This document shows positions 6,255 to 26,366 of a DNA stretch of 32,000 bases, in pieces (the first letter of the stretch is position 1; the number at the start of each line of letters is the position of its first letter). The notes beneath the pieces are model-generated. The model had not been told where the DNA came from, ran no database searches, and was given only the letters and a program-made list of their open reading frames with translations. The translations under genes and the position numbers were made by a program. The DNA comes from Methanopyrus kandleri AV19 (GTDB lineage Archaea > JAADCQ01 > Methanopyri > Methanopyrales > Methanopyraceae): positions 810,001 to 842,000 of the forward strand of contig NC_003551.1 of assembly GCF_000007185.1 (NCBI RefSeq). The letters run 5' to 3'.

Positions 6255-6284
6255 TCGTCGGGTTTCCACGGAGGTGATATCATC

Positions 6285-7220: not shown

Positions 7221-7231
7221 GGGGGTGCCGG

Positions 7232-7948: not shown

Positions 7949-7960
7949 GGGGGAACCGCT

Positions 7961-8197: not shown

Positions 8198-8205
8198 TTT
8201 TTAAA
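8198..8205 (+). promoter_or_regulatory. Candidate TATA box (TTTTTAAA) for argJ
   Basis: TTTTTAAA lies 32-39 nt upstream of TTG 8237. There is no obvious SD, which is compatible with a very short leader. Confidence 0.35.
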
Positions 8206-8236
8206 CTCGGGTCAGGGGCCCCTCCAGGGAACCGCG

Positions 8237-9400
8237 TTGCGGGCACCTGAAGGCTTCCTTCTAGGTGGCATCAAACGCGAAGGTATAGGAGTCGGGTTGA
8301 TCTTCTCGGAGCGTCGATGTGCCGTGGCGGGCACTTTCACCGAGAACACCCTCCGCGCCGCTCCGGTGGAGCACTCCGAGGAAGTGTGCGATCGAGGTGT
8401 CGCCCGCGGAGTGATAGTGAACAGTGGTCACGCCAACGCGATGACGGGTGAGGAGGGGTATCAGGACGTACTGCGCACGGCGGAAGCGATCGCTGAGCTA
8501 ATGGGGGCTCCGGAGGACGAGATAGTGGTGTGTTCTACGGGCGTGATCGGTGAGCGTCCTCCTGTCGACAAGATCGTGAGGTACGCGCGCGAAGTTTGGG
8601 AGGATATAGGACCCACCGAACGGCACGTTCGGGAGTTTAGTCGGGCTATCATGACCACCGATACCGAGGAGAAAATAGCTTTGTACGAAGGCGATGGCTG
8701 GTCACTTCTCGGAATCGCGAAGGGTGCGGGTATGATACATCCGAACATGTCCACTATGCTCGCGTTCTTGCTCACCGATGTAGGAGCGAAACCGAAAGAG
8801 CTTCAGATGTGGCTACGCGATGTCGTGAACGACACGTTCAACATGATAACGGTAGATGGGGATGAAAGCACTAACGATTCCGTGGTGCTGCTGGCGAACG
8901 GCAGCTCGAACCTCAAAGTCGGCAGCGATGTTACCATCACGGAGTTCCAGCGCGCCCTGGAAGAGGTCTGTACGGAGCTCGCTGAGAAGATCGTACGAGA
9001 CGGTGAAGGAGCGACGAAGCTCATGATAGTGTGTGTACACGGTGCGAGTAATGAAGTAGAAGCTCGGCGTGCGGCCCGTGCGATAGCGTCCTCAAACCTG
9101 GTGAAGGCGGCGCTGTTCGGCGAGAATCCGAACTGGGGCCGGATCGGAGCCGCTGTCGGGGCCGCACGCGTCGATGTTGATCCGGACGAGTTACGGATAG
9201 CTTTCCGCAGCTCAGAGGGCGAGATAGTGACCTACGAAGGAGGTCCAGTGGACTTCGACGAAGAGAAGGCTAAGCGCGTTCTCTCCGCGAGTGAAGTCGA
9301 GATTGTGGTGGACTTAGGCGTAGGTGACGCGTCCGCCCGCGCGTGGGGGTGCGACTTAACGTACGAGTACGTACGGATCAACGCGGAGTACAGGACTTGA
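8237..9400 (+). CDS. argJ: Bifunctional glutamate N-acetyltransferase / amino-acid acetyltransferase (ornithine acetyltransferase)
   Basis: 387 aa. It begins with the APEGFLLGGIKREG N-terminus. The self-cleavage region is GMIHPNMSTMLAFLLTD. Further blocks are ITVDGDESTNDS, NPNWGRI and a C-terminal YVRINAEYRT. Confidence 0.95.
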   Translation: MRAPEGFLLGGIKREGIGVGLIFSERRCAVAGTFTENTLRAAPVEHSEEVCDRGVARGVIVNSGHANAMTGEEGYQDVLRTAEAIAELMGAPEDEIVVCSTGVIGERPPVDKIVRYAREVWEDIGPTERHVREFSRAIMTTDTEEKIALYEGDGWSLLGIAKGAGMIHPNMSTMLAFLLTDVGAKPKELQMWLRDVVNDTFNMITVDGDESTNDSVVLLANGSSNLKVGSDVTITEFQRALEEVCTELAEKIVRDGEGATKLMIVCVHGASNEVEARRAARAIASSNLVKAALFGENPNWGRIGAAVGAARVDVDPDELRIAFRSSEGEIVTYEGGPVDFDEEKAKRVLSASEVEIVVDLGVGDASARAWGCDLTYEYVRINAEYRT

Positions 9401-9519
9401 CCCTCCCCGCCTTAAAGGATGATTCGGGGCGTCGGCCCTCTGTTCAGTCACATCTTTCACTGGGCGGGCAGTCGAGCCGTTCAGAATGCATTTCGGGAGC
9501 AAATAGCGGGTGGGTTCGG

Positions 9520-9546
9520 GGCGATTTCTACGGATCGCCGATCGCC
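9520..9546. promoter_or_regulatory. Inverted repeat GGCGAT-N8-ATCGCC with tandem GATCGCC GATCGCC; candidate operator or hairpin
   Basis: GGCGAT (9520-9525) can pair with ATCGCC at 9534-9539 or with the second copy at 9541-9546. It lies ~15 nt upstream of the AATAAAAA element. Confidence 0.3.
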
Positions 9547-9560
9547 CGTGGTAACCCAAG

Positions 9561-9568
9561 AATAAAAA
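9561..9568 (+). promoter_or_regulatory. Candidate TATA box (AATAAAAA)
   Basis: This is the only strongly AT-rich octamer in the 187-nt argJ-downstream spacer. It lies 20-56 nt upstream of the candidate starts at 9588, 9609 and 9624. Confidence 0.35.
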
Positions 9569-9587
9569 CTCTCCCATCCTTTCAACC

Positions 9588-10862
9588 TTGGAGGATGAGG
9601 CTAGCAGCGTGAGGGGGCCTCACTTGACCGACAGGGAGGAAGTGGTAGAACTCCGCGGTCATATTATCGACTCACTCATTTTCTCCCGGGTACTGGACAC
9701 TATCATGGAGATGGGCGGAGATTTTGAAATATTGGAATTCAAGGTAGGGAAGCGTAAAACGGACCCTAGTTTCGCGAAGATCCTCGTCAAGGGGAAGGAT
9801 CCTGAGCATCTTAGAGAGATAGTCTCCGAACTACGCAAGTACGGGGCGGTCCCCGTTCACACGCAGGAAGTCCGACTGGAGCCGGCTCCGGCGGACGGCG
9901 TCTGTCCCCGGGGCTTCTACACAACTACGAACCACCGAACGTTCGTACTTTTCGACGGCGAGTGGATCGAGGTCGAGGACATAGAGATGGACTGCGCGAT
10001 CGTGGTTTACCCGGAGGAACGCAGGGCAGTGGCTAAACCCATCCGAGAGGTTCGTGAGGGAGAGTTGGTGGTAGTGGGAGACAGAGGAGTGCGCGTGAAG
10101 CCCCCCGAGAGACCCCGCGGTAGGACTGGAATCTTCGGCTTCATGGAGAGCGAAGTCTCACCTGAAAAGCCCACACCAACGCTGATCCGAAGAATAGCTG
10201 AAGAACTAGAGTGGCACCGAAAGAACGGTAAAATCGTGGTAGTCGTTGGCCCTGCCGTGATTCACGCTGGAGCCCGTGATGATCTGGCATGGATGATCAG
10301 AGAGGGGTACGTAGACGTACTCTTCGCGGGTAATGCCGTGGCTACGCACGACGTTGAAGCTAGTTTATTCGGGACGTCACTCGGTGTGGATTTGGAGACG
10401 GGTGAGCCAGTAAAAGGAGGACACAGCCACCACCTTTACGCCATCAACGAGATCCGGCGAGTGGGCGGGTTACGCGAAGCCGTCGAGAAAGGAATCCTGA
10501 AAGATGGGATAATGTACGAGTGCATCGTCAACGATGTTCCGTACGTGTTGGCAGGCTCGATACGTGATGATGGTCCTATCCCGGACGTAATCACCGACGT
10601 CATGGAAGCCCAAGCGGAGATGCGACGTCATCTCAAGGGGGCCACCCTAGTGCTGATGATGGCGACGATGCTTCACTCGATCGCCACCGGCAACCTCTTG
10701 CCTTCCTGGGTCAAGACTATCTGCGTAGATATCAACCCGGCGGTAGTTACGAAGTTGATGGATCGAGGGACCGCCCAGGCTCTGGGAATAGTGTCCGACG
10801 TCGGTGTATTCCTACCGGAACTCGTGAAGGAGCTCAAGAGGGTCCGCGACGACGAGGCTTAG
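9588..10862 (+). CDS. TIGR00300 / LOR-SDH-like family protein (possible ornithine cyclodeaminase-type enzyme)
   Basis: The N-terminal block VELRGHIIDSLIFSRVLDTIMEMGGDFEILEFKVG is followed by a Rossmann-like part (KIVVVVGPAVIHAGA...VLFAGNAVATHD...GGHSHHL...VLAGSIRDDGP). The start is uncertain. TTG 9588 is the ORF-track start. GTG 9609 or TTG 9624 (MTDREEVVELRGH) fit the TATA position better. Confidence 0.8.
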   Translation: MEDEASSVRGPHLTDREEVVELRGHIIDSLIFSRVLDTIMEMGGDFEILEFKVGKRKTDPSFAKILVKGKDPEHLREIVSELRKYGAVPVHTQEVRLEPAPADGVCPRGFYTTTNHRTFVLFDGEWIEVEDIEMDCAIVVYPEERRAVAKPIREVREGELVVVGDRGVRVKPPERPRGRTGIFGFMESEVSPEKPTPTLIRRIAEELEWHRKNGKIVVVVGPAVIHAGARDDLAWMIREGYVDVLFAGNAVATHDVEASLFGTSLGVDLETGEPVKGGHSHHLYAINEIRRVGGLREAVEKGILKDGIMYECIVNDVPYVLAGSIRDDGPIPDVITDVMEAQAEMRRHLKGATLVLMMATMLHSIATGNLLPSWVKTICVDINPAVVTKLMDRGTAQALGIVSDVGVFLPELVKELKRVRDDEA

Positions 10863-11058
10863 TCCACTCTTCCACCCTGCGCTCGATGAGTTCTTCCATC
10901 ACCTTTTTAGCCTCTTCCAGCGCATCCTTCGTCCCCCTGAAGGCTAGGACCGTTGTCTTCGTCCCGCCCCGTTCAATCTCCCGTTGCACGACTTTTACGT
11001 CGCACCTTCGTTCCACCTCGGCGATCACGTCCGCGGGGACGCCCAGTGGTATTATCAT
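10834..11058 (-). CDS. Small hypothetical protein (alpha/beta, KH-like pattern without GXXG)
   Basis: The ORF is open to 11205, but the upstream part looks non-coding. ATG 11058 gives the 74-aa protein MIIPLGVPADVIAEVERRCDVKVVQREIERGGTKTTVLAFRGTKDALEEAKKVMEELIERR... Its 3' end overlaps the convergent gene by 29 nt. Confidence 0.4.
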   Translation of the reverse strand: MIIPLGVPADVIAEVERRCDVKVVQREIERGGTKTTVLAFRGTKDALEEAKKVMEELIERRVEEWTKPRRRGPS

Positions 11059-11116
11059 ATCATACTTCTTGGTATCTCGTTCGGACACCTTCGACACCCC
11101 CAGAGGGGGATGACCG

Positions 11117-12100
11117 TTGTCGGAAAAAAGTAGCCGGAAGGAGCGAGATGAGAAGACGGAGAAAGAGACCGCCAGACAGGGAAAGCACCGCCGCATCAGG
11201 GTCAAGTCTAGGCACTACGAAATGCCGTTTTCCCGAGGCGTTCTCGCCAGATCCCTCACAGCGATCGGCGTCGAGCCTCACAAAGCGTACGAGATTGCAC
11301 TCAAGATCAAAGAAGAGCTGCAAGATGAAGGTATAGAGGAAATTAGCACTGATGAATTGGCGGATATAATCCGGACTAAACTTGAGGAAATCGATGAGAC
11401 ACTAGCGGAACGATATGAGCTATGGAGGAGGATTAAGAAGCGCGAGGAGCCGATAATAGTCTTAATTGGAGGAGCTTCTGGTGTCGGTACATCTACGATA
11501 GCCTCTGAGGTAGGACACAGGCTCGGTATTACGAACGTCATCGGTACCGACGCTATTAGAGAAGTAATGCGCAGAGTTTTAGCCGAGGAGTTGTATCCGA
11601 CTCTCTATGAGTCTTCGTACACAGCTTGGAAGCGATTGCGCTATGAACCCGCCGAAGACCCTGTGATTACTGGGTTTCTTGACCACTCTGAACCAGTGGT
11701 GGTCGGTATTGAGGGAGTTGTGAATCGATCGATCAATGAAGGTATCCACGTGATCGTAGAGGGCGTTCATATCGTTCCACGATTGATTAAGAAGGAGATT
11801 CTCAACTACCCAAACGTGTTCGTGTTCATGCTCGCTGTAGAGGACGAAGAGGCGCATAAGTGGCGCTTCTACGCCAGGTCCAGGGATACCAAACTCTCAC
11901 GACCCGCCGAGCGGTACTTGAAGTACTTCGAGGAGATCCGTAGAATCCACGACTTCCTCGTGGAGGACGCCGAAGAACACGATATCCCGGTGATCAACAA
12001 CGAACATATCGATGAAACGGTGGACCAGATCGTGAGCTACATATCCTCTAAACTCCTGAAGGGTGAGAGAGAGCTATCCAAGAGCGTCTCCTGGTGGTGA
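11117..12100 (+). CDS. pgk2: 2-phosphoglycerate kinase (ATP-cone + P-loop kinase)
   Basis: The ATP-cone-like N-terminus is IRVKSRHYEMPFSRGVLARSLTAIGVEPHKAYEIALKIKEEL. The kinase core is IIVLIGGASGVGTSTIASEVGHRLGITNVIGTDAIREVMR...YESSYTAW. Note that the Walker A reads GVGTST, not GK[ST]. Confidence 0.82.
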   Translation: MSEKSSRKERDEKTEKETARQGKHRRIRVKSRHYEMPFSRGVLARSLTAIGVEPHKAYEIALKIKEELQDEGIEEISTDELADIIRTKLEEIDETLAERYELWRRIKKREEPIIVLIGGASGVGTSTIASEVGHRLGITNVIGTDAIREVMRRVLAEELYPTLYESSYTAWKRLRYEPAEDPVITGFLDHSEPVVVGIEGVVNRSINEGIHVIVEGVHIVPRLIKKEILNYPNVFVFMLAVEDEEAHKWRFYARSRDTKLSRPAERYLKYFEEIRRIHDFLVEDAEEHDIPVINNEHIDETVDQIVSYISSKLLKGERELSKSVSWW

Positions 12101-12106
12101 TGTATC

Positions 12107-12523
12107 TTGACGTTCCGCGAGAAGTTACGCGGTTGTAAGGTCGAGGAACTGATGACCAAAGACCCTATCACCGCGTCTCCTCAAGTTGGAGTGATAGAAG
12201 CGTTCGAGATCATGCTCAAGCATGATGTTGGAGCACTGCCGGTAGTGGACGATGAGGGGAGACTTATAGGGCTCGTAACCCGAACCGACCTCGGGCGCGC
12301 ACTACTCGAAGACGAGTACGAGCCCGGAACCACCGTCGAAGAGGTGATGGAAAGGGACGTGGTAGTAGTTCACCCGGATGACACCTTACTCGAGGCCTTG
12401 AAACGCATGACCTCCGCCCCTGAGGGTATCTATAACCAGCTTCCCGTAGTCGACGATGAAGAGAAGCTGGTGGGAATACTGACGGACGGGGACATCCTTC
12501 GGTGGATAGCGAAGAAACTGTGA
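12107..12523 (+). CDS. CBS-domain pair protein
   Basis: 138 aa with two CBS repeats (VEELMTKDPITA...GALPVVDDEGRLIGLVTRTDL and VEEVMERDVVVV...QLPVVDDEEKLVGILTDGDIL). It starts 7 nt after pgk2. Confidence 0.9.
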   Translation: MTFREKLRGCKVEELMTKDPITASPQVGVIEAFEIMLKHDVGALPVVDDEGRLIGLVTRTDLGRALLEDEYEPGTTVEEVMERDVVVVHPDDTLLEALKRMTSAPEGIYNQLPVVDDEEKLVGILTDGDILRWIAKKL

Positions 12524-12750
12524 GGGTCAGAGCGCGGGAAGCGCCGGAGGAATTACTTTCGCTGTTACGTAAGCTCGGGCTCTCAATCGCCCGGACCAAG
12601 AGCGGCTACGAGGTTAGGGGCCCCAAATCTCGGTTTCTGAGGGCCCTTCAACATATACCGCCCAAGATGGCTATTCTGGCCCGCGAGACCGTCGAAGAAT
12701 TAAGACGGGCAGTCGGGGTGGAAAGGCCCAGGTTATCCTATCGCCGTTAG
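12520..12750 (+). CDS. Small hypothetical protein
   Basis: The ORF track gives 12502..12750. GTG 12520 forms a GTGA overlap with the CBS gene stop. No family recognised. Its stop overlaps the convergent gene stop (TTAG). Confidence 0.4.
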   Translation: MRVRAREAPEELLSLLRKLGLSIARTKSGYEVRGPKSRFLRALQHIPPKMAILARETVEELRRAVGVERPRLSYRR

Positions 12751-13631
12751 AACACTATGTACTTGCCACGCAGTATATCTCGGTCTACCACGTATATGCG
12801 CTGCTTACCGCCTGAGTTTGATATCCATAGTGCCAAGGTTAAATGTTTAGATTTTGCATGTTCTGGTAATACCAGCACCATGGCCATTCTATCTCCGAAG
12901 TTTACGGTTCGATCGCCAACTTTCTCCTTCCCGGGTCCTAGAAGGGTTAGCTTTGCGGTTCCTAGTCGGGCAATCAACTGCTCGATTACGAGGCAACCTC
13001 TGGCACCCGTGGAGTGTAAGGCGCGCTCGATGCGTTCTTCTATGAGCGTATGTTTGCCATCACTTACGTTGCACAGTACCTCTCCGACAACTGCGTTGTA
13101 ACGCACTTTCAGCTTCGGTCCATCCATCAACCGATTACCAAGCTCACGGCGTATCGCCCGCTTGATGGCGTTAACGTCGGGCTTTCCGTCGTACGATGCT
13201 TGGAACACGAACTTGGACCCTTTAATCACGGTACCCCTGGCGTCCAGTACCTTATCCTTCAACCGCTCCTCGATTCGTTTTTTCACGTCTTCCGGGTCCG
13301 CAGTCAACGGGACTAGAGCGTCCACGACGAAGACCGTGTATCCCTTGATCTTGACTTTCCTGACGTCTACGTTCTCCACACCACCCGCACTGCTTACGGC
13401 ACTCTTCACGTCGGATGTCTTAACACCGGGCTTGGGCACGGCTAGGTATCGGACGACCGACACCTGGTAATCCTTCACTATGCTCGCATCGACCGTCCCT
13501 TCGGCCGCCGCTACGGCACTCTGTCCCCCCATCATGAAGGAGGGAATCGCGGATAGCACCATCATGGCTGCGAGAAAGATTATTCCGGCGGTGACGATGG
13601 ATTTTCGGTGTCTTCGAATCCAGCCGAACAA
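12747..13631 (-). CDS. Signal-anchored/secreted hypothetical protein
   Basis: 294 aa with a TTG start 3 nt after the CYTH stop and a GGGGGAGTGA SD. The N-terminus is a basic stretch followed by TM SIVTAGIIFLAAMMVLSAIPSF. No family recognised. Confidence 0.6.
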   Translation of the reverse strand: MFGWIRRHRKSIVTAGIIFLAAMMVLSAIPSFMMGGQSAVAAAEGTVDASIVKDYQVSVVRYLAVPKPGVKTSDVKSAVSSAGGVENVDVRKVKIKGYTVFVVDALVPLTADPEDVKKRIEERLKDKVLDARGTVIKGSKFVFQASYDGKPDVNAIKRAIRRELGNRLMDGPKLKVRYNAVVGEVLCNVSDGKHTLIEERIERALHSTGARGCLVIEQLIARLGTAKLTLLGPGKEKVGDRTVNFGDRMAMVLVLPEHAKSKHLTLALWISNSGGKQRIYVVDRDILRGKYIVF

Positions 13632-13634
13632 CGA

Positions 13635-14180
13635 TCACTCCCCCTGGTCGAGCAGCATCTCCAAGTACGAGTGACGTACTCGCTTACCCTCGACTCTCAG
13701 CTCCTCCAAGATACTTACCAGCAGCTTCTCTTTCTCATCGACCTCCGACTCATCGTCCGCCTTACACTCCAGCTCGAGAAACGTGCCGAGACCCTCCACC
13801 TCATCCAGCGCCGCTACAACTTTTTCTCCGTTCACTTCGAGCGTGTAGACCGTCCTAAGCTTCTTTACTTCCGCGTGCTCTAGCGGCTCGAACCCTAGGT
13901 GGCGCAGGATGGCGTCGGTTGTCTCGAAATCGTCGACTACCACTTCTAACTCCACCCGTGACTTCTCGCGCCCTACCTTCGGTCCCTTGTAAGTTAGTGC
14001 GACTTTATCGTCGGAGCAGCGCAGTCGAAGTGCTTCGTCCGTCTCCGCGAAGTCACGGCAAGGATGCTGGTAATACAGGTCCCGCTGTCGGACGGTCCTT
14101 ACCTTCTCTCCGAGCTCCTCCAAGCGCTTCCGCACGTCTTCGGGGTTCTTCAGCTTGACCTTAACCTCTACCTCGTACAC
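13635..14180 (-). CDS. CYTH-domain protein (class IV adenylate cyclase / triphosphate tunnel metalloenzyme family)
   Basis: 181 aa. It has the N-terminal EVEVK (ExExK) signature and the internal blocks ALRLR, LTYKG and VELEVVV, ending in FLELE. The GTG start is 6 nt after an AGGAGGTGA that overlaps the ClC stop. Confidence 0.85.
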   Translation of the reverse strand: MYEVEVKVKLKNPEDVRKRLEELGEKVRTVRQRDLYYQHPCRDFAETDEALRLRCSDDKVALTYKGPKVGREKSRVELEVVVDDFETTDAILRHLGFEPLEHAEVKKLRTVYTLEVNGEKVVAALDEVEGLGTFLELECKADDESEVDEKEKLLVSILEELRVEGKRVRHSYLEMLLDQGE

Positions 14181-14186
14181 ACCGGA

Positions 14187-15364
14187 TCACCTCCTCTTCA
14201 GTTCGATGACTACCTCGGGTTTCAAGAGCTGATACCCCAGGATCGCTCCCAAAGCGGCCGGGACGGCGCAGTCGATGCCGAACAGCTCGATGACCAGCAC
14301 AGCGGACGAGATCGGAGCGTTGAACGTCGCAGCCAAGAACGCAGCGATAGCCGTCGCGGTTCCGGCCGGAGCGGACGGGCCCAACGTTTGACCCAGAAAA
14401 GACCCAAAAACGCGCCCACGCACACTGTCGGTGAAACCAAGCCCGCGGGTGTTTCACTACCGACTGTTAGCGCGGTGGCTACCATTTTGCCCAGGAACGA
14501 TAGTAGCGCTTCTTCGGCTCCGATGCGGCCTAAGGCGGCCTTCGAGGCGTAGTCCAACCCCAATCCTACGGCTGTCGGAATAGCGATGCCTACCGACGCT
14601 ACCCCGAGTCCTGCTAGGAGAGAACGTACGGGTTGACTAGGTACGGATTCGACGAACAGACGACGGGCTTCCTTGACGCACCGGCTGTACACGTATGCGA
14701 GTAACGTCGCCACTACGGCGATCACCAGGAGTTCCGGCAGGTGCTGTGGGCTGTAGTGATAAGGGGCGTTCCTCACGAGCAAGTAGCGCTTTCCTAAGGT
14801 CGAAACGTACACGGAGTATCCGGCAAGACTGGCTATCGTGCTGGGAAAAAGTACGACGTAGCGGGACCTCACGCGAAGGACCTCGATGGCGAACAGGGCC
14901 GCCGCCAGCGGTGCGCACAGAACCCCGGCCACGCCTCCCGAAATTACCCCCAGCACGGCCCATTTTCTTTCCATCTCCGACATTCCCAGCTTCGAAGCTA
15001 CGTAGCCCCCTACGGACGCGCACGCCTGGGCACAAGGTCCTACTTGACCGCCACTACCTCCCCCGCCGATGACGAGACCCGCGAGTACCAACTTCGCCAT
15101 CCCTCTGATGGGATTCGCGGGCTCGTTTGGGAACCCCCGGACGATGATCTCCATCCCGGTCCCTCGGAGCTCGGGATGTAGTGCCGCTAGGCTGCCGGCC
15201 AGCAGCATGAACGCCGGGATAACTAACGGCTCGTTCCCGACGGCCTTCTCCACCGTGCTTATAATTGAGGAGATGGCGACAGCACACGCTCCGCCGACAA
15301 CGCCCAACGCCGCGGCCAAAACCGTCCACCGGGCGACGTGAATCAACGCCCCCGTCGACGGCAA
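14187..15364 (-). pseudogene. ClC-family chloride channel, reading frame interrupted by an apparent 1-nt deletion
   Basis: ClC-like motifs are RGTGMEII, GGGGSGGQVGPCAQ, APLAAALFAIEVL and GSETPAGLVSPTVCVGAFLG in the 14222..15631 frame. The family-typical C-terminus (SFLGQTLGPSAPAGTATAIAAFLAATFNAPISSAVLVIELFG) continues in the 14187..14423 frame. The switch point is at the A5/A4 runs at 14397-14410. The preferred start is TTG 15364, after GGAGGTGGAG. Confidence 0.75.
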
Positions 15365-15390
15365 CTCTCCACCTCCGGGGGTTCTCGGCG

Positions 15391-15711
15391 GTGTGGACCC
15401 TGACGGTAAGTGCTGAGGGGGAACGCGGACCGTGCGGACGCGTGCGAGAGTTGTACTCAAATGACAAGGTCTCCGTGGCAGAAGTGAGTGTTCGGGGTGA
15501 AGGCGAAGAGCATTACCACCGACGCACGTTCGAGGTGTACTACGTGATCGACGGTCGTGGAAAAGTGGTGCTGAACGGTCGTCCCGTCGACGTGGGACCG
15601 GGGGACGTCGTCGCCATCGAACCGGGGACAAGGCATAAGGTGATCGGCAACCTGAGGATGCTGGTGGTGTGCATCCCCCCGTTCGACCCGGAGGATGTGT
15701 ACCGGGTATGA
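15391..15711 (+). CDS. Cupin-domain protein
   Basis: The ORF is open from 15265, but its 5' part overlaps the ClC gene. GTG 15391 (or 15442/15451) is more likely. The cupin core is EEHYHRRTFEVYYVIDGRGKVVLNGRPVDVGPGDVVAIEPGTRHKV. Confidence 0.75.
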   Translation: MWTLTVSAEGERGPCGRVRELYSNDKVSVAEVSVRGEGEEHYHRRTFEVYYVIDGRGKVVLNGRPVDVGPGDVVAIEPGTRHKVIGNLRMLVVCIPPFDPEDVYRV

Positions 15712-15734
15712 TGAGCTAAGCCTACGCCGACCTA

Positions 15735-16055
15735 GTGGGGAGTGAGGATACGGGTGAGCTGCCTGACCCACCCCGCGTGTTTATCGAACTGAGGTTAAGA
15801 GTTCCCGAAGAGGTACTATCGGCCCTGGATCCGGATTCCGATAAGTGTTGCGACAGAAGTGGGGACGTTGTCGAGGTATTCGTCGAAGGGTTCGGGGCGG
15901 CGAAATACGCCGTCGAGGACGTTCTGCGGTGCGTAAAAGTGGGCACCGACACGCTCGAAACCGTCAGGGGGAGCGAGAGTGCAGCCACTGACGAGGAGGA
16001 ACAAGGACGAGCATCCCGCGGTTCTCGACCCGGATCGAACGATCGTCCTAGGTGA
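15735..16055 (+). CDS. Small acidic protein with a CitD/MdcC-like SGD motif (candidate carrier protein)
   Basis: 106 aa with a GTG start (GTG 15777 is an alternative). GC3 is consistent with coding up to ~15978. The motif CCDRSGDVVEVFVEG resembles the prosthetic-group serine region of citrate lyase and malonate decarboxylase acyl carrier subunits. The last ~25 codons overlap the next gene and look low-complexity. Confidence 0.45.
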   Translation: MGSEDTGELPDPPRVFIELRLRVPEEVLSALDPDSDKCCDRSGDVVEVFVEGFGAAKYAVEDVLRCVKVGTDTLETVRGSESAATDEEEQGRASRGSRPGSNDRPR

Positions 16056-16695
16056 CGTGACGGTGTCCCGAGACGCGGTGATAGGACCGGAGGTCAGACT
16101 GGGACCGGACGCCGTCGTACGAGGCGCTGTGATATCCGGACGTTGTGTCGTCTACAATTGTGAGCTCGGACGTTGTGCCGTAGGTCCTAAAACCACGGTC
16201 ACGGGTGATGTTGGGGACGGAGTTACCATCCACTCGGGTACGATTCTAGGGCAGCTCCGTGTGAGCGGGGAGATCGAACCACCCGAGGTAGGTGAGGGGG
16301 CCTTCTTGGGACCTGGGGTTTCCGTTCTTCCGGGGACGGTCATAGGTCCGGAGTCCGTCGTGATGCCCGATAGTGTGGTGACCGAGCGCGTACCGCGTCG
16401 CGGAGTCGTCAGCGGAAATCCGGCGATGCCCACGGGGATGGTCGTCGACGCGGAGACGTTGATCCTGGAGTTCGATGGAAAGCGGCTGTTACTCGAAGGG
16501 AAACGGGGAACCGCCTTCGACGTCAGGCTGAGCGACGGCGAACTCGAAATCACCGAAGAGAGCCCCGATAACTTCGGAGCCGTGCTTGAGAAGGACGTAG
16601 TGAAGGTGGTTCGCATGGGACACGCGATACCCTTGCCCGCTGAGCGACCTTTCTCCATCCCCCTGCACGTACTGGAGGTACGAACGAAGGGGTAA
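15979..16695 (+). CDS. Hexapeptide-repeat (left-handed beta-helix) acyltransferase-like protein with an extra C-terminal domain
   Basis: 238 aa with GTG 15979 after AGGGGGAG (alternative GTG 16056). The imperfect hexapeptide repeats are VLGDVTVSRDAVIGPEVRLGPDAVVRGAVISGRCVV...VGDGVTIHSGTIL...FLGPGVSVLPGTVIGPESVVMPDSVV, ending in the typical VVSGNPA. An ~85-aa unassigned domain follows. Confidence 0.7.
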   Translation: MQPLTRRNKDEHPAVLDPDRTIVLGDVTVSRDAVIGPEVRLGPDAVVRGAVISGRCVVYNCELGRCAVGPKTTVTGDVGDGVTIHSGTILGQLRVSGEIEPPEVGEGAFLGPGVSVLPGTVIGPESVVMPDSVVTERVPRRGVVSGNPAMPTGMVVDAETLILEFDGKRLLLEGKRGTAFDVRLSDGELEITEESPDNFGAVLEKDVVKVVRMGHAIPLPAERPFSIPLHVLEVRTKG

Positions 16696-16702
16696 GTGGG
16701 CG

Positions 16703-17305
16703 GTGCCGGTCCGCGAGTCACTACTGATAGACACCGATGTGCGCCGCTCGCTAGTGCTCGGGTCCGTATTGGAGATGTGCGAGGTGGAAAGAGCAGCCGT
16801 GTTGGGTACTGTTGCCCAGGGTAAGCGGTTCGAACACGGTGTTTTCGTGGCCGGGAAGCGGGTACCAGGCGAGGTAATCACGGTAGAGGTGGAAGTCTCA
16901 AGGGAAGTCGTACGCTCGGGATCGATGGAAATCGACCTCGATCCCGCGGATCCGGATCTGGTGGCGGTGGTTGCGGATGTGAGGGCTACTGGACTCATCG
17001 CGAACCTCACCGGCTTACGACCGGAGCGCCGAGGATTCCACGCCCTGTTCGCTTTCTCGGGTGAGTTACCCGCTCGAGTACGGAAGAGGGTGGTAAGCAA
17101 CCTGGACGTGTTCAGAGAATGTTGTCCGTGTGCCCTATTGGAGATCGGTGACGTGAAGCTGAGGTTTCTAGGAGGTCGACAGGTGTTCGATGAAAGGTCC
17201 AGACTGTCGTATACGGACGTCCTCGCCGTCAGGGACGGGAAGCCGATAGCATCTGCATGGAGGCCGGCGTCCAGAAGCGTCATCTCTAAGTTGGGGGCCA
17301 GGTGA
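16703..17305 (+). CDS. Hypothetical protein (orphan member of the CitG-like cluster)
   Basis: 200 aa with a GTG start 7 nt after the previous stop. It looks protein-like. No family recognised. Confidence 0.5.
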   Translation: MPVRESLLIDTDVRRSLVLGSVLEMCEVERAAVLGTVAQGKRFEHGVFVAGKRVPGEVITVEVEVSREVVRSGSMEIDLDPADPDLVAVVADVRATGLIANLTGLRPERRGFHALFAFSGELPARVRKRVVSNLDVFRECCPCALLEIGDVKLRFLGGRQVFDERSRLSYTDVLAVRDGKPIASAWRPASRSVISKLGAR

Positions 17306-17311
17306 GGGACC

Positions 17312-18238
17312 GTGGTGGGGACAGTCAGAGAGCTTCCGACGCTGTTTTGCGAGTCGGTCGCACTGGAGGTACTCTCCGGGCCGAAACCAGGGTTGGTGGA
17401 TCCCATCTCTCCTAGCTCCCACGAGGACATGGGGCCCCGTGAGTTCCTCGCGTGCCTTCCGGAGCTTCGAAGGTGTCTCGAGGAGGCCCTAGAGCTGGGG
17501 ATAGACGGTGAACCCGTAGACGAGTTGATCCGGTCCCTTCCCGCGTGGAACGTGGACGTGATAACAGCTTCTGGCGGACCTAACTCCGTGCGTGGGATAG
17601 TGTTCCTCGGGTCAGTGTACTGCTACTCGGCTGGGCTCGAAAACGACCCGTTCCCGTTCGGCCGCATCCGCGTCGTCGGGAGAAGGTGTACGGAGGCCCT
17701 CTGGAACCGGTCGGAAACCAAGTGCGGGCGAATCCGGATCAAGGAGCGATTGGCCGGTGTCTTCGGCGAGGTGGCCTCCGGAATGGCTACGGCTCGGGGG
17801 GTATCCTTGCCGGTCCTACGGGCCACGCTGCGGGCGGGAAGGCCCCTCGAAGAGGCCGTGATACACTCGGTACTGGCCTGCATGTCAACGTTAGAAGACG
17901 CCGGGATCCCCCGGAAACTGCGTAATTGGGTGAAACGAAGGGCGTCGGAAGTTCTACGCGCTGGAGGCCCGTTCACCGAACGGGGTCGCGCGGAGCTGCA
18001 CAAATTCGTGCACGAGTGCGCCGAACGTGGGGTGAGTCCCGGTGCCTCGGCCGACGTCACGGTCGTTGGACTCGTCCTCCTACTTGCGAGGTGGGGGAGG
18101 GACATCGTATCCCCGTATCGTGATCCTCCGCGGAGGTGGAGTGGCGGAGCTGTTGAACGGAACTCTCAGGCTTCTGATACGGTCGGACGGAACCCGGGCG
18201 GTCGCGTCCGCGGGAGACGAGAAGTTCTTAAAGGCTGA
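17312..18238 (+). CDS. CitG/MdcB-like triphosphoribosyl-dephospho-CoA synthase family protein
   Basis: Four blocks match the CitG family as I recall it. GPKPGLVDPISPSSHEDM fits PKPGLVD..H.DM. GGPNSVRGIVFLG fits the GxNTHKGxIF pattern. GVFGEVASG fits GxRGExxxG. VSPGASADVTVVGL fits SPGGSADLL. The last ~43 codons ([17 protein letters not shown]...) look out-of-frame and overlap the next gene. Confidence 0.8.
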   Translation: MVGTVRELPTLFCESVALEVLSGPKPGLVDPISPSSHEDMGPREFLACLPELRRCLEEALELGIDGEPVDELIRSLPAWNVDVITASGGPNSVRGIVFLGSVYCYSAGLENDPFPFGRIRVVGRRCTEALWNRSETKCGRIRIKERLAGVFGEVASGMATARGVSLPVLRATLRAGRPLEEAVIHSVLACMSTLEDAGIPRKLRNWVKRRASEVLRAGGPFTERGRAELHKFVHECAERGVSPGASADVTVVGLVLLLARWGRDIVSPYRDPPRRWSGGAVERNSQASDTVGRNPGGRVRGRREVLKG

Positions 18239-18677
18239 CGAAGCTGAGGTCCGCAGGGAGTTAACACCCTTCGAAGCTTACCGGAAGATATGCAAGAAAC
18301 TGGACGCGTCTGTTGTCGAGCCACCCGAAGATGTAGGACATCCCGTCGATCCTGAGGTGGGATATCGGGTCCTGGAACTCTTGGAGAGCCTGTGGGACTC
18401 GGGGTTCAGGCGCTTGGGTGTCTTGGGGACCGTCGGGTGCGGTGCGCCCCTCCACGACATCGAGGTCGGGAATCCGGTCGGGTGGACTAGCGTTCGGGTC
18501 TCGAACCCAGGCTCAGATCTCGACCTCGTGGCCCCCCACCGAGATTACTTATTGGAGATGTCACTGTCTGGTTTCGAAACTGTAAAGCGTTTCGCGGACC
18601 GTGTGATAATGTCTCCCGCGGCATTCACTGGGTTTACAGTTCCCAGAGTCGAAGTCCGGTTACCCAGGGGGTGTTAA
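18120..18677 (+). CDS. Candidate MdcG/CitX-like phosphoribosyl-dephospho-CoA transferase (nucleotidyltransferase-fold motif)
   Basis: The frame is open from 18042, and the start is uncertain (GTG 18120, GTG 18141 or TTG 18153). GC3 in 18120-18238 favours this frame over the CitG tail. The motif [12 protein letters not shown]...[11 protein letters not shown] resembles the G[ST]..G...SDLDL signature I recall for MdcG and polymerase-beta-type transferases. Confidence 0.45.
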
Positions 18678-18678
18678 C

Positions 18679-20148
18679 TTGACGGAAAAACTTGACAGTG
18701 TGTTACCCAAAACCTCACAAGGTTCGAACTTGAACGATCTGAAGAACCTCCGCGATGCGCTGGATAAGTTTTCCGAGATCGAGCCGGATCTGGACGTCGA
18801 GTCGCTGAAAGCTACGCTGGACGATCTGATCACGCTCATGGAAGAAACAGGCGTGAAAGACGTGAGGGATCTCTGCGAGAAGTTTCTGGACTTCAAGCGT
18901 GAAAAGGAGCGGTTGGAAGAGCTCCTCAAGGAGTACTTCAAGCGGTTGGAGGAGTTGGAGCGGAAGCTGCGAGCCCACGAGGAGAAGCTTCGCATCGAGG
19001 CCCGTCGTCGTAAGACTCTGGAGAAGGAGTTGGAGATGGAGCGCGACGAGAAGGCCGAGCTGCGGGAGGAGCTACGGCGTAAAGAAGTCATGATCGAGAA
19101 GCTCCGTAGCGACCTGCAGCGGATGAAGAAGCCCCCGCTCATCGTGGGTACCGTCGAAGAGATCCTCGACGACGGTCGCGTGATAGTGAAGAGTTCCACG
19201 GGTCCGAAGTTCGTCTCGAACGTGAGCCCGACCGTAGACAGAAACGAGCTCGAGCCGGGTGCTAACGTGGCCCTCAACCAGCAGAGCATGGCCGTGGTGG
19301 ACGTGTTACCGTCGGAGAAAGACTCACGTGTACTGGCGATGGAGGTGGACGAGTCACCCGATGTGTCGTACGACGATATCGGCGGTCTGGACGAGCAGAT
19401 CCGCGAGATCCGAGAAGTCGTGGAGAAGCCGCTCAAGGAGCCCGAGCTGTTCGAGAAGGTCGGTGTCGAACCGCCGAAGGGTGTCCTACTGTACGGTCCA
19501 CCGGGCACCGGTAAGACCCTGCTGGCCAAAGCCGTGGCGAACCACGCCGACGCCACCTTCATCCGGCTCGCCGCGCCGGAATTGGTCCAGAAGTTCATCG
19601 GCGAAGGTGCTAGACTGGTGCGGGAGCTGTTCGAACTCGCACGCGAGAAGGCTCCGAGTATTATCTTCATCGACGAGATCGACGCGATCGGTGCCCGGCG
19701 AATGCGGGACGCGACGAGCGGAGACCGCGAGGTCCAGCGCACGCTCACCCAGCTGCTCGCGGAGATGGACGGCTTCGATCCGCTCGACGACATCAAGGTC
19801 ATCGCGGCCACGAACCGGAAGGACATCCTGGACCCGGCCTTGCTGCGACCGGGTCGGTTCGACAGGCACATTAAGATCCCGCTACCGGACGAGGAGGGCC
19901 GGTACGAGATCTTCAAGATCCACACGCGCGACATGAACTTGGCCGAGGACGTCGATCTCCAGAAGCTGGCGAAGATCACCGAGGGTGCCTCAGGTGCGGA
20001 CATCAAGGCCATATGTACCGAGGCTGGTATGATGGCTATACGCGAGGACCGTGACATTGTCACCATGGATGACTTCCTGAAGGCCGTGGACAGGGTCATG
20101 GGTAAGAAGGAAGAAGAGAGCGGAGAGTTCAAGCGCGCGTACCACTGA
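18679..20148 (+). CDS. pan: Proteasome-activating nucleotidase (AAA+ ATPase)
   Basis: The coiled-coil N-terminus is followed by the OB region [28 protein letters not shown]. Walker A is GPPGTGKT and Walker B is IIFIDEIDA, followed by the second region of homology [22 protein letters not shown] 18679 gives 489 aa. ATG 18838 (MEETGVKD...) would give a more typical 436 aa. Confidence 0.95.
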
Positions 20149-20232: not shown

Positions 20233-21030
20233 GTGGGCGAGCGGACTGTTGCGCATTACGGTCCTTACGTCGTTAAGGAGATCAGAACGAACCAGGACAA
20301 CCTGGACGCGATCCGTTCGTTACTGAAGTCCGCCGAGCGCCGTGGTCCTGGAAACGTGGGAGAAGTGGTTCCTCTCGATGTCTTCGACACGGACCGTGGG
20401 CTAGCCTCCGATCGCACCAGGCTGCTGGTGGCTCTACGGGAGGACGAGATCGTCGCTTGCGTCGCCGCGGATCCTCGGGAACGCATAGGTTCCGGTCCCA
20501 ATCCCCACAACGTCTTCGGCCTCGTAGTGTCTCCGGAGGTGCGCGCCAGGTACCAGTTGGGACACGTCATGATCGCCGCCGCCCTGAAAACGCTCCGGGA
20601 AGAAGGTCTGAAGGTCGCACGAACCACTCCAATCAGACGCGCCTTACCGTTCTTCACGGGTATCCGCGCCGATCCCACTCATGTGTACCGGGAACTCGAG
20701 GTGAGGCTAAGGTGGTATCGTAGGACTGGGAGTGAGGAGTACTTGGAGCTAACCAGGGTACCGAGAGAGGTCCGTGAAGAGCTGGAGCTACTTCGAATTC
20801 GTACGGTGAACGCTCGGAGGGACCCTACACCGTTTCACCGGTTGGATCCGGAGAAGCCCGTGCACGTTTTCAGGTCGGGTGTCCGCTCGTTCACCCTCAT
20901 AGCATCGCTGGGGGACGGGGATCATGGTCGACGTCAGCGTGATATTGCCCACGTACAACGAGCGCGAGAACCTTCCAAGGGTGATTCCCAAGATCGAGGA
21001 GGTAGTGGAGGAAGAAGGCTGGACCGCTGA
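20233..21030 (+). CDS. Hypothetical protein with a possible GNAT-like N-terminal domain
   Basis: 265 aa with a GTG start. LLVALREDEIVACVAAD...VFGLVVSPEVRARYQLGHVMIAAALKTLREEGLKVA loosely fits GNAT motifs. The last 107 nt overlap the next gene in another frame and translate to low-complexity sequence. Confidence 0.4.
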   Translation: MGERTVAHYGPYVVKEIRTNQDNLDAIRSLLKSAERRGPGNVGEVVPLDVFDTDRGLASDRTRLLVALREDEIVACVAADPRERIGSGPNPHNVFGLVVSPEVRARYQLGHVMIAAALKTLREEGLKVARTTPIRRALPFFTGIRADPTHVYRELEVRLRWYRRTGSEEYLELTRVPREVREELELLRIRTVNARRDPTPFHRLDPEKPVHVFRSGVRSFTLIASLGDGDHGRRQRDIAHVQRAREPSKGDSQDRGGSGGRRLDR

Positions 21031-21688: not shown

Positions 21689-23029
21689 TTGCGCGTTGTG
21701 GTGGTAGGAGGCGGAGCCGCCGGCGTCGTAGCCGCTCGGACTGCCCGGGAACACGGCGCCGACGTGGTTCTAATCTCGGCGGATGAGCATATCGCGTACT
21801 CCCCCTGCGCCATCCCGTTCGTAATCTCAGGGGAGATAGAACGACCGGAAGATATCCTGATGCGCGATCCCACCCACTACGAGCGCCTCGGGATCGACGT
21901 CAGGCTGGGCGTGAGGGTGGAGGAAGTCGATCCCGAAGAGAAGGTCGTGACCACCGAAGACGGTGACACCGTCGAATACGACTCGATGGTTCTCGCTACC
22001 GGTGGAGAGCCTCTAGTTCCCCCGATCGAGGGTTCCGAACTGGACGGCGTCTTCACCGTTCGGCGGTTTTCGGATATCGAGCCTCTACTACGAGCCGTTC
22101 AGGAGTCGGAGCGAGCTGTGATAGTGGGAGCAGGACCCATCGGTGTAGAGATGGCGTACGCCCTTCACGAACGCGGGTTAGAGGTCACGCTGGTCGAAAT
22201 GCTCGATAGGGTTCTTCCGCAGTTCCTCGACGATGATGTCGCCGCGATAGTGCAAGAGCGGATGGAAAAGGAGGGCGTCAGAGTACTTCTCGGCTCGCCT
22301 GTGGAGGCTATAGAAGGCGATGATAGAGTGGAGGCCGTGGTGGTAAACGGTGAAGAGATAGAGGCCGACCTCGTCGTGATGGCGGCCGGTGTGAGGCCGG
22401 TAACGGACCTCTTTGAGAGCATAGGGGCTTCGGTCCTACCCTTTGGGGTTGAAGTCGATCCCGCCCTTCGAGTCAAGCGCGAGGACGGCGGTGTCTTCGA
22501 CGATATATACGCGGCCGGGGATTGTGTGGCTGATTGGTGTCCCATCACGGGTGAGCGAGTTCCGAGCCAGCTCGGCACGGTCGCCGTTCGACAGGGCAAG
22601 ATCGCCGGGAAAAACGCCGCTGGAGGTCCCAGGGCGACTTGGATGGGTACCCTCAACACCGCAGTGATCCGCGTGTTCGATCTGGAGGCGGCGGGTGCGG
22701 GATTGACACAGACCAGGGCCGAAGAATTAGGGTTGGAGGTGGTTTCGGCCACCGTCGAGACGACCACCAGGGCCAGGTATTATCCGGGTGGCGAGCCTAT
22801 TGCGGTCAAGTTAATAGCTGATGCGGACACGCACCGTATCGTCGGAGTTCAATCCGTTGGAGGGGAACGGGTGAGGGAGCGCGTCGACGGTGTCGCTTTG
22901 GCCATCCGGCTGGCGGCTAAAGTAGAGGACCTCCTGAGCTGGGATTACTCCTACTCGCCTCCGGTCGCTCGGGTTATAGAACCCATATACGAGGCCGCCG
23001 AGCTCCTTAGGGAGGAGCTTCACTCATGA
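21689..23029 (+). CDS. FAD-dependent pyridine nucleotide-disulfide oxidoreductase (NADH oxidase / CoA-disulfide reductase family)
   Basis: The FAD-binding start is VVVVGGGAAGVVAA and the single redox Cys region is AYSPCAIPF. The second dinucleotide fold is AVIVGAGPIGVEMA, followed by the AAGDC block and a dimerisation domain. TTG start. Confidence 0.85.
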   Translation: MRVVVVGGGAAGVVAARTAREHGADVVLISADEHIAYSPCAIPFVISGEIERPEDILMRDPTHYERLGIDVRLGVRVEEVDPEEKVVTTEDGDTVEYDSMVLATGGEPLVPPIEGSELDGVFTVRRFSDIEPLLRAVQESERAVIVGAGPIGVEMAYALHERGLEVTLVEMLDRVLPQFLDDDVAAIVQERMEKEGVRVLLGSPVEAIEGDDRVEAVVVNGEEIEADLVVMAAGVRPVTDLFESIGASVLPFGVEVDPALRVKREDGGVFDDIYAAGDCVADWCPITGERVPSQLGTVAVRQGKIAGKNAAGGPRATWMGTLNTAVIRVFDLEAAGAGLTQTRAEELGLEVVSATVETTTRARYYPGGEPIAVKLIADADTHRIVGVQSVGGERVRERVDGVALAIRLAAKVEDLLSWDYSYSPPVARVIEPIYEAAELLREELHS

Positions 23030-24662: not shown

Positions 24663-24959
24663 ATGCGTTGGGAGACTAGGCGCGAAAAGATCGTGTCCTT
24701 GCTCACGGAGAGCCGTGAACCTCTGACCATTGAGGAGATAGCTTACATGGTCGGAGAGGACGATAAATCGAAGATTATCGAGGACTTGGAACACATAGCT
24801 AAAACGCTACGTCGTGAGGGCAAGACGCTGCTTATGGAACCGGCTAGGTGTAACAAGTGCGGGTACGTGTTCAAGAGCCTCAGGGTTAAGCCACCGTCCA
24901 GGTGCCCGAAATGCAAGTCCGAGTGGATCCAACCGCCGAGGTTCACGATCAGGGAATGA
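24663..24959 (+). CDS. HTH + C-terminal Zn-ribbon putative transcriptional regulator
   Basis: The ORF track starts at 24648. ATG 24663 (MRWETRREKIVSLL...) lies 1 nt after the upstream TGA. The wHTH-like N-terminus is PLTIEEIAYMVG and the ribbon is CNKCGY...CPKCKS. Confidence 0.65.
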   Translation: MRWETRREKIVSLLTESREPLTIEEIAYMVGEDDKSKIIEDLEHIAKTLRREGKTLLMEPARCNKCGYVFKSLRVKPPSRCPKCKSEWIQPPRFTIRE

Positions 24960-25605
24960 CCCTCCGAGGGACGTCCAAGGACAAATCGTCCAACGTTATC
25001 CTTAGAAACTCACCCACCGCCACGACGTCTCCCAGATATCGTGAGCCGTTCTCACGTATCTCGACGACTTCGAGTCTCTCGGTGATCCCAACGATCGCGT
25101 CCGGTCTATGGAAGCCCAACGGACGACACCTCACGCCTTCCACTTTCAGGAAGCCCGAGGAGAGGTCTATCGACATGCCACCCGCGGAGAGTTCGCTCCC
25201 GCGACGCTGCGTCATGATGGTGAGACTCTCGTAGGTCCTGACGTGTAGGTTCTTACCGTACAGCGTCACCATGTAGTCGCTGCCCACCTTGCGGACGTCT
25301 ACGAAGAGTTCCCCGAGACGACGGTGCGGGATGATCGGTGGGACGACGACGCCTTCTCCGATCTTTCGGACCCGGAGCGGTTCGGTAATGACGCGCTCCT
25401 CCGTGACACGGTATGGGACCACGTAGTAATACCCAGAATCCGCACGCACCGATACCAGGCACACGGATCGGAACTTCTCAAGTCCCGCTACCTCACCGAG
25501 TCGCACGTACCCGTCGTGTGATCGGCGCATTACCCTAGCTTCTTCGCCTATGTCGAACTTCTCACAGACTACCGGGGGCTCCGGAACGTTCTCCGGCAGT
25601 TTCAT
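24949..25605 (-). CDS. Hypothetical protein
   Basis: 218 aa with an ATGA overlap with the upstream gene. It looks beta-rich. No family recognised. Confidence 0.55.
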   Translation of the reverse strand: MKLPENVPEPPVVCEKFDIGEEARVMRRSHDGYVRLGEVAGLEKFRSVCLVSVRADSGYYYVVPYRVTEERVITEPLRVRKIGEGVVVPPIIPHRRLGELFVDVRKVGSDYMVTLYGKNLHVRTYESLTIMTQRRGSELSAGGMSIDLSSGFLKVEGVRCRPLGFHRPDAIVGITERLEVVEIRENGSRYLGDVVAVGEFLRITLDDLSLDVPRRVIP

Positions 25606-26366
25606 CCGAACACAGCCCCCTCCATTTCGAGTACCGCGTTGAGTACGCCATTCACCAGCTCGGACCGTCTGCCCAACACTGCGGCAGGGCTCCAGCTGAA
25701 CATTCTGTAACCGACGTTCCTGGACGTCAGGACCCCTGCGGCTTCCAGTGCGTCCAGCATCTTAGTCCCGAGTTTGAACTCACGGAAATTCCTGCAGATT
25801 CTACCCAGTATCTCCGTGGCGGACAGGTACATCGTGCGGACAACTCGCACATCCCTTCGGGCGATTTCTCCTAATATCGTGGACCCCGTCTCTTCGACGA
25901 GCTCGCTCACGTGTTCATTCATCTCCTCAAGAGTGCCACCACGTTTCAACGCTTCCGGGCACGGCCCGTACGGCGGCCATGTCAAAATGTCCTTCGCGGA
26001 GCCTTCCACCTTAACCAGCTCGACCGACACCTCGCGCACGATGCTGTCGGGTACGAAGTCCAGAAACACCTGGGAGTAGACCACAACGTGAACTTCTTTG
26101 AACCTGTTGAGCAGCGCCGATAGAACGTTGTACACCTTGGATCTGATACTCCTGAGTGCGTAACGGTCACGGCGCTCCAACCACTCGAGCACCGTTGGCG
26201 CATCCATGTGAGCAATTACCACACGGTCTGCTCCCTCGTCACACAACGAGGTGATGTCGGATAGCCTTCGAGCATCCGATACGTCTACGATTTCGCCGTC
26301 TTGCGCTAACTTATGGCATACTTCTCTGAACCCGTAGCACGGCGGGCAGACGGTGACTTTCAGCAA
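25602..26366 (-). CDS. Hypothetical protein
   Basis: 254 aa. The TTG start overlaps the truA stop by 7 nt. It has an N-terminal CPPC motif. No family recognised. Confidence 0.55.
   Translation of the reverse strand: MLKVTVCPPCYGFREVCHKLAQDGEIVDVSDARRLSDITSLCDEGADRVVIAHMDAPTVLEWLERRDRYALRSIRSKVYNVLSALLNRFKEVHVVVYSQVFLDFVPDSIVREVSVELVKVEGSAKDILTWPPYGPCPEALKRGGTLEEMNEHVSELVEETGSTILGEIARRDVRVVRTMYLSATEILGRICRNFREFKLGTKMLDALEAAGVLTSRNVGYRMFSWSPAAVLGRRSELVNGVLNAVLEMEGAVFG

Follow-up and report, generated by a model that had tools for sequence, protein, structure and literature searches.

A highly divergent CitG/MdcB-family gene in a putative six-gene operon of Methanopyrus kandleri and its possible relation to the bacterial CitG/MdcG prosthetic-group module

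The holo-acyl carrier protein module of malonate decarboxylase is made up of MdcB (EC 2.4.2.52), MdcG (EC 2.7.7.66) and the acyl carrier protein (ACP) MdcC, a description that includes the biotin-dependent Mad type, and the corresponding module of citrate lyase is made up of CitG, CitX and CitD. To our knowledge, the CitG/MdcB-type synthases are known solely as makers of the prosthetic group of the citrate lyase and malonate decarboxylase carriers. A gene of this family lies at 17312-18238 (+ strand) in a stretch of 32,000 nt of the Methanopyrus kandleri AV19 genome (NC_003551.1, 810,001-842,000, forward strand; the whole of this stretch is called the window below), as the fifth of six co-directional open reading frames (ORFs) upstream of pan, and is followed by the gene of an orphan protein, here called P6, that is a candidate MdcG-like transferase. 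No CitC, CitD, CitE, CitF, MdcA, MdcC, MdcD or MdcE gene and no ACP of PF06857 was found in the scanned ORFs of the window or in the Pfam tables of the syntenic loci from other Methanopyri, in agreement with an earlier note on this DNA that had remarked on the absence of known lyase or decarboxylase partners. The reading favoured here, which is put forward tentatively and is in our judgment somewhat more apt to fail than to hold, is that these genes would descend from the bacterial CitG/MdcG prosthetic-group module as a branch that is specific to Methanopyri, has diverged strongly and serves an acceptor not of the CitD/MdcC type.

Membership of the 308-aa product in the CitG family, as proposed in the earlier note, is solid. 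The protein matches PF01874 at 2e-37 (129.8 bits against a cut-off of 27), its residues 11-256 covering profile positions 3-283 of 284, and a profile of the Methanopyri proteins aligned by hhalign to 109 canonical CitG/MdcB sequences with E=5e-44 over 260 columns. The equivalog models are not reached; i.e. the best NCBIfam match, to the MdcB model TIGR03132, scores 98.2 bits (cut-off 282) and the CitG model TIGR03125 scores 77.6 (cut-off 272), and the nearest relatives, which are bona fide CitG/MdcB proteins, score 230-309 bits on the same models. A HMMER search over 1.84 billion representatives yielded two clusters below 1e-30, both from Methanopyri, followed by a next best match of 100 bits and 32% identity; the best 150 matches form one tightly linked canonical CitG/MdcB/CitXG cluster, and the Methanopyri group is separate from it. 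Among the nearest relatives in the databases many are fusions of CitX and CitG or are encoded in citCDEFXG-type operons, and for 20 of the best 150 representatives, whose names were sampled, the source is bacterial wherever it is named. An archaeal homologue is annotated in Methanobacterium formicicum (PMC7386643). The loci of six nearest non-Methanopyri relatives (P0010, P0031, P0041, P0049, P0106 and P0148) were read, and all six hold a PF06857 ACP, MdcG or CitX, and lyase or decarboxylase subunits; to judge from these six, a synthase of the CitG/MdcB family always has a transferase as its partner. By these sequence comparisons the Methanopyrus protein is a highly divergent member of the canonical CitG/MdcB branch. 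A bacterial variant cluster (L028, 3806-7681) holds an ACP with a weak match, then a CitE-like lyase, then in the place of CitF a protein of 386 aa without Pfam match, and last CitG and CitX, and non-standard partners therefore occur within the canonical branch itself.

Conservation of the locus was followed in six diverged Methanopyri loci from genomes or metagenome-assembled genomes (L001, L004, L005 and L009-L011), whose CitG-like proteins are 48-67% identical to that of the window. Full-length orthologues of all six ORFs are present in each of the six loci at 36-67% identity (tblastn), and these are therefore real genes and not chance ORFs. About 90 positions of the CitG-like protein are invariant across sequences down to 49% identity, and the protein appears from this alignment to be clearly under purifying selection. 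Of the 27 positions that 95% or more of the canonical members share, ~15 are unchanged throughout the Methanopyri and 8 are substituted in every one of them. Retained are the KPGLVD, G-x-N-x-x-x-G, G-x-G-E and SPG-x-x-D motifs together with E19, D39, N91, G95, E153, D196, P243 and D248. The conservation stops near residue 272, and the G/R-rich tail of the protein that lies beyond it overlaps P6. NCBI proteins under the names Methanopyrus sp. or M. kandleri match the CitG-like protein, ORF4 and P6 at 93-97% identity. Homologues of ORF2, ORF4 and P6 were found in Methanopyri alone (word-indexed searches with P6 and ORF4, tblastn and alignment for ORF2); none of the three has a Pfam, NCBIfam, PADLOC or PDB sequence match, and motif scans of genomes and metagenomes with the CitG-like protein and ORF4 returned nothing beyond the Methanopyri loci and no distant contexts.

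P6 (18141-18677, +, 178 aa) is encoded by the sole gene that overlaps the CitG-like gene at its 3' end, by 98 nt. Its start is most likely the GTG at 18141, which stands behind GGAGGTG and agrees with the NCBI annotation, and not position 18120 as had been assumed. The GTVG...GSDLDL motif noticed in this protein is real and invariant across orthologues: G96, T97, G99, S125, D126 and D128, and with them a third acidic residue, D153, are identical in the six P6 orthologues, and the protein carries the sequence signature of Pol-beta nucleotidyltransferases (NTases), G-[SG]...D-x-D plus the third acidic residue. MdcG sequences were collected from nine bacterial malonate-decarboxylase operons, and profiles of 5, 7 and 9 sequences were made from them. 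Four hhalign runs placed P6 and MdcG in register, with P=0.0009, 0.0017, 0.0027 (full length, 9 sequences) and 0.0008 (C-terminal domain) as compared to 0.12-0.9 for controls, those run with the 9-sequence profile giving 0.15-0.7, and the register covers a helix, the G-x-G-[ST] motif and SDLDL. The MdcG Pfam families (PF10620/PF20866) give no match to P6 of the window and match one of the six orthologues at E=0.22, and MdcG is the best of the weak Pfam matches of P6, found with that one orthologue, over all families. In the poor AF2 model of P6 (predicted local distance difference test, pLDDT, of 50.6) the order of secondary structure elements fits the NTase core. On this basis a role of P6 as an MdcG-like transferase is plausible. 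The earlier suggestion of an MdcG/CitX-like protein survives in its first half, by virtue of the in-register P values near 1e-3, the invariant motif and the coupling to the CitG-like gene, but not in its second, since comparison to CitX (PF03802; the first 190 residues of 58 proteins of CitXG-fusion length) gave a hhalign P of 0.24, and P6 is rejected as a CitX. A RecA match to P6 in the PDB sequence search is an artefact of a tandem-repeat construct, and PDB sequence searches with ORF2, P6, ORF4 and CitG profiles gave nothing meaningful.

The pair of genes shares several features with the malonate decarboxylase module. In both, a CitG/MdcB-family synthase adjoins a protein of ~180-220 aa with G-x-G-[ST]...S-D-L-D-L, and in the malonate decarboxylase loci L015-L017, L023 and L027 the genes mdcG and mdcB adjoin or overlap. 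However, other features differ; e.g. the Methanopyrus cluster lacks the MdcC ACP and MdcA, MdcD, MdcE and MdcH, its gene order is reversed with the synthase first, P6 lacks the N-terminal domain of MdcG and carries an insertion of ~12 residues inside the motif, and the cluster is that of an archaeal hyperthermophile. With the citrate lyase module of CitG, CitX and CitD the cluster shares the synthase family, but P6 is not similar to CitX and no CitC, D, E or F gene is present.

The arrangement of the six genes argues for coupled expression. All six + strand ORFs upstream of pan were confirmed with the order and spacing previously described, abutting or overlapping throughout: a small single-domain cupin (15391-15711, 106 aa, with an H-x-H...E...H metal motif and a Cupin_2 match at 3.8e-15), an acidic orphan, ORF2 (15735-16055, 106 aa, isoelectric point 4.4), whose 3' 77 nt lie inside the following gene, a left-handed beta-helix (LbH) hexapeptide-repeat acyltransferase-like protein (15979-16695, 238 aa, Pfam Hexapep PF00132 at 5.2e-13), the orphan ORF4 (16703-17305, 200 aa, without Pfam family), the CitG-like gene and P6, after which comes pan (18679-20148, +; proteasome-activating nucleotidase, whose counterparts in the syntenic loci carry the Pfam domains AAA and Prot_ATP_ID_OB). 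The spacings from the cupin to pan are, in order, +23, -77, +7, +6, -98 and +1 nt, and a G-rich Shine-Dalgarno (SD)-like sequence precedes five of the six starts. A TTATAA AT-rich element (15258-15268, +), ~120 nt upstream of the cupin start and within the divergent CLC-channel ORF, may, by its sequence, serve as the archaeal TATA box of the operon; it is the sole AT-rich 8-mer in 15226-18225, with none between 15268 and 18225. In the L001 lineage each gene from the cupin up to the CitG-like gene shares 4-32 nt with its neighbour, and the called P6 of that lineage (8905-9384) runs 58 nt into pan (9327-10775); if P6 is taken to start at 8794, as the alignment indicates, the CitG/P6 overlap in L001 is 77 nt. 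Because the gaps are at most 23 nt or are overlaps, SD-like sequences are present, an internal AT-rich promoter-like element is lacking and the L001 genes overlap, the six genes probably form one translationally coupled operon, with pan probably co-transcribed as a seventh gene.

The two long out-of-frame overlaps, ORF2/LbH (77 nt) and CitG/P6 (98 nt), are kept across Methanopyri. In both of them the invariant residues are those in the frame of the downstream gene, encoding its N-terminus, and the tail of the upstream product is variable, so that these tails, G/R-rich in the CitG-like protein and D/E-rich in ORF2, look to have been overprinted by the next gene. A +1 shift of reading frame at the CitG/P6 overlap would give a CitG-P6 fusion. 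The CLC-channel gene on the - strand, whose ORF extends to 15631, is divergent from the cupin with almost no intergenic space (25 nt in L001).

Among the remaining products of the cluster, ORF4 would, on the favoured reading, be the best candidate for an acceptor. Its invariant residues are an E-C-C-P-C sequence (139-143), H113 and S119, and its AF2 model has a pLDDT of 75, with residues 55-185 at ~90 and an N-terminus that looks beta-helix-like. Foldseek comparison of this model to the PDB gave no analogue (best E 0.13, template-modelling score at most 0.26), and ORF4 may, on the strength of the model, adopt a new fold in which its clustered cysteines make up a metal or thiol site. Its 'GTVA-x-G' and 'AFSGEL' sequences were considered as an MdcC serine motif and rejected, since the aligned position is Q, H, R or S and the similarity is not significant. 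The LbH protein has the Hexapep repeats together with the GNP-type CoA-binding region of hexapeptide acyltransferases; a PLTRRNKD-HPAV motif at the N-terminus, H85 and GNPA are invariant, and a C-terminal extension of ~80 aa is variable. Its PDB sequence matches are many LbH acetyltransferases and gamma-carbonic-anhydrase-like proteins at E values of at least 3.7e-6, and all of its NCBIfam subfamily matches are far below cut-off. The cupin orthologues are 60-66% identical in the six Methanopyri loci.

If the favoured module reading is correct, the CitG-like protein would, by the chemistry of its family, transfer 5-triphospho-alpha-ribose from ATP onto a hydroxyl of dephospho-CoA or a close analogue with release of adenine, and P6, as its gene coupling and its weak motif and profile similarity to MdcG suggest, would join the alpha-phosphate of the product to an acceptor hydroxyl with release of pyrophosphate. 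The acceptor would be neither a CitD/MdcC-type carrier nor ORF2; within the cluster ORF4, with S119 and ECCPC, would be the best remaining candidate, and a small molecule or a protein encoded elsewhere would be equally open as alternatives. The LbH acyltransferase, as a member of a CoA-ester-using family, and the metal cupin might, speculatively, load or act on the thiol-bearing product. A more specific proposal, that this is a new archaeal system in which a phosphoribosyl-dephospho-CoA-type arm, put in place by the CitG/MdcG-derived pair, would be carried on ORF4 as a carrier of novel fold and the LbH protein and cupin would replace the lyase or decarboxylase subunits, is in our estimate unlikely.

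A number of observations weigh against the module. In the CitG-like protein the replacements among family-conserved positions include E to N80, R to F or L151, G to A245 and an R that is variable at 202, and with these losses its substrates may differ or its activity be altered; the PDB sequence search gave no solved structure for the CitG/MdcB family, and the replacements thus are not mappable on a structure. The similarity between P6 and MdcG is at the level of the motif, with HH probabilities of just 11-24%, and with one intermediate MdcG profile the top match of P6 was out of register (P=0.008). The AF2 model of P6 is poor and its Foldseek matches are meaningless, which leaves the NTase fold putative. 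All cluster proteins compared to the 8-sequence ACP profile gave P of at least 0.24, and none has a conserved S-G-[DN] serine. Gene order gives little help: neighbourhood conservation, which had been proposed as a test, is found within Methanopyri, but synteny extends there over ~25 kb, from ArgJ to MgtE/TruA, and includes the plainly unrelated ArgJ, CLC channel, pan, GT2 and MgtE genes, so that it reaches far beyond the cluster and carries no functional weight. M. kandleri also packs unrelated genes tightly, pan itself abutting the cluster.

These observations are in part those that would be expected if the six genes had no joint function at all, i.e. if a very compact genome had brought unrelated genes together, with the CitG-like protein a diverged relic or recruited to some other task, P6 no transferase and its SDLDL a coincidence. 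Besides the synteny of plainly unrelated genes in all Methanopyri, pan abuts the cluster as tightly as the members abut each other, the P6-MdcG probability stays below 25%, and none of the partners by which the known systems are defined is present. Such a lack of joint function is in our judgment only a little less probable than the module. Against it, the CitG-like protein is under purifying selection with most of the family motifs kept, the sole gene that is translationally coupled to it is the one whose product has its best weak Pfam match to MdcG, and the long conserved overlaps argue for coupled expression.

A second rival keeps the pair of enzymes but changes what they act upon: the CitG-like protein would ribosylate the hydroxyl of a molecule other than a CoA derivative with ATP, and P6 would form a phosphodiester to a second small molecule with release of pyrophosphate, either in the alpha-ribofuranosyl-5-phosphate-hydroxyglutarate side chain of methanopterin or in a Methanopyri-specific metabolite. 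The chemistry is formally analogous to the established CitG and MdcG reactions, as is generally known of these enzymes, the cluster has no carrier-protein homologue, and the replacement in all Methanopyri of three near-invariant charged residues of the family fits a changed substrate. A small-molecule pathway as a whole nevertheless appears distinctly unlikely to us. Its methanopterin version bears on a separate branch of the CitG family, Orf7, which does occur in the tetrahydromethanopterin (H4MPT)/methanofuran islands of methylotrophs. The earlier note had named orf7 as a CitG homologue, and this is right: the island mch-orf5-orf7-fae has been described (PMC3615186), in Methylomonas DH-1 the two genes listed right after mch encode an alpha-L-glutamate ligase and, next to it, a triphosphoribosyl-dephospho-CoA synthase (PMC11533326), and orf7 is found at 10984-11847 in an island on a Phyllobacterium plasmid (L030).

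Like the Methanopyrus protein, Orf7 is a distant PF01874 member that has no association with an ACP, lyase or decarboxylase. Unlike it, Orf7 reads KPGNVH at the site of the KPGLVD that the window protein has in common with the canonical enzymes, and the island neighbours mch, RimK-type ligase and fae have no counterpart in the window. Pairwise, the window protein and Phyllobacterium Orf7 score 27 bits. Profile-profile comparison gave E=1.8e-16 for Orf7 vs canonical CitG/MdcB and P=0.0076 for Methanopyri vs Orf7, the Orf7 profile here consisting of three proteobacterial sequences, with no archaeal Orf7-type sequence included. Because its match to the canonical branch (E=5e-44) is so much closer than that to Orf7, the window protein is, on these profiles, not an Orf7 orthologue, and the two are separate lineages of the family. 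The methanopterin link that had been drawn through Orf7 is not supported for this gene. Nor is any H4MPT or methanofuran gene (mch, fae, fhc, mpt) present within the 32-kb window, and a literature search for CitG together with methanopterin or methanogens returned no functional study. H4MPT is, as far as we know, made by all methanogens, and a universal cofactor pathway is unlikely to need ORF2, ORF4 and P6, which are confined to Methanopyri. The H4MPT version taken by itself is accordingly very improbable.

The L030 region (positions 1-20000; Phyllobacterium zundukense plasmid NZ_CP104969.1) is itself a complete plasmid-borne H4MPT/methanofuran one-carbon island, which holds fhc genes and genes for RFAP-synthase-like, mtdB-like and ATP-grasp proteins, mch, a RimK-type ligase, orf7 and fae, and in addition HisA/F-like, hydantoinase-like, DUF447 and MfnB-like genes, with a Phd/VapC toxin-antitoxin pair inserted.

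The weakest of the rivals, that ORF2 is an acyl carrier whose SGD serine receives the prosthetic group, is barely credible: the size, acidity and cluster position of the protein resemble those of CitD/MdcC, and the R-S-G-D-V-V-E-V of this genome resembles the G-S-G-D-L-E-V of MdcC, but the alignment already contradicts it. The SGD motif is confined to the lineage of this genome, the serine being replaced by D or G in each of the other five lineages, and the ORF2 alignment contains no invariant serine; C39 and C66 are its invariant cysteines. The hhalign comparisons of ORF2 to ACP profiles gave P=0.12 and 0.24 (the latter with the 8-sequence profile), and no Pfam ACP matches any of the six ORF2 orthologues. 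The assignment of ORF2 as a CitD/MdcC-type carrier (PF06857), which the earlier note had put forward as a candidate role, was rejected on these grounds. An identification of ORF2 as the KEOPS subunit Pcc1 was also considered and not accepted, the match being a local one of 31 C-terminal columns (P=0.0034 vs two Pcc1 sequences) with no Pfam or PDB match.

Several other genes of the window may be mentioned. About 3 kb upstream of the cluster an ATP-cone ORF (11117-12100; PF03477 in the syntenic loci), which we take for a relative of 2-phosphoglycerate kinase, precedes the gene of a CBS-domain protein (12107-12523); 2-phosphoglycerate kinase catalyzes the initial reaction on the route to cyclic 2,3-diphosphoglycerate, a compound that Methanopyrus accumulates. 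On the other side, 3 kb downstream and separated from the cluster by pan, an orphan and a GT2 glycosyltransferase, lies a Pyr_redox_2/Pyr_redox_dim flavoprotein (21689-23029) of the CoA-disulfide reductase/NADH oxidase type, possibly CoA-related, and a TctA-family tricarboxylate transporter gene (28029-29210, -; Pfam 2e-24) stands ~10 kb from the CitG-family gene, not adjacent to it. Nine further ORFs, each 180-400 aa long, are without a Pfam family at E<=1e-4: 419-1270(-), 1276-2472(+), 3225-4070(+), 7232-7948(+), 12747-13631(-), 20233-21030(+), 24949-25605(-), 25602-26366(-) and 29229-29777(+); for 12747-13631 and 20233-21030, at least, other Methanopyri have a counterpart in the corresponding place that likewise lacks a Pfam match. 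PADLOC defence models gave no match, nor did Rfam and tRNA scans of the window.

With Orf7 and the window protein in different lineages, the methanopterin idea would belong to the Orf7-type genes and not to the gene of the window. The ORF4 carrier system, if true, would be the first of its kind in archaea and the first that does not belong to the metabolism of citrate, citramalate or malonate. More generally, a CitG-family member that is kept under selection in a hyperthermophilic methanogen without carrier, lyase or decarboxylase may point to a new acceptor for ribosyl-phosphodiester chemistry or, alternatively, to an unrecognised archaeal use of dephospho-CoA derivatives.

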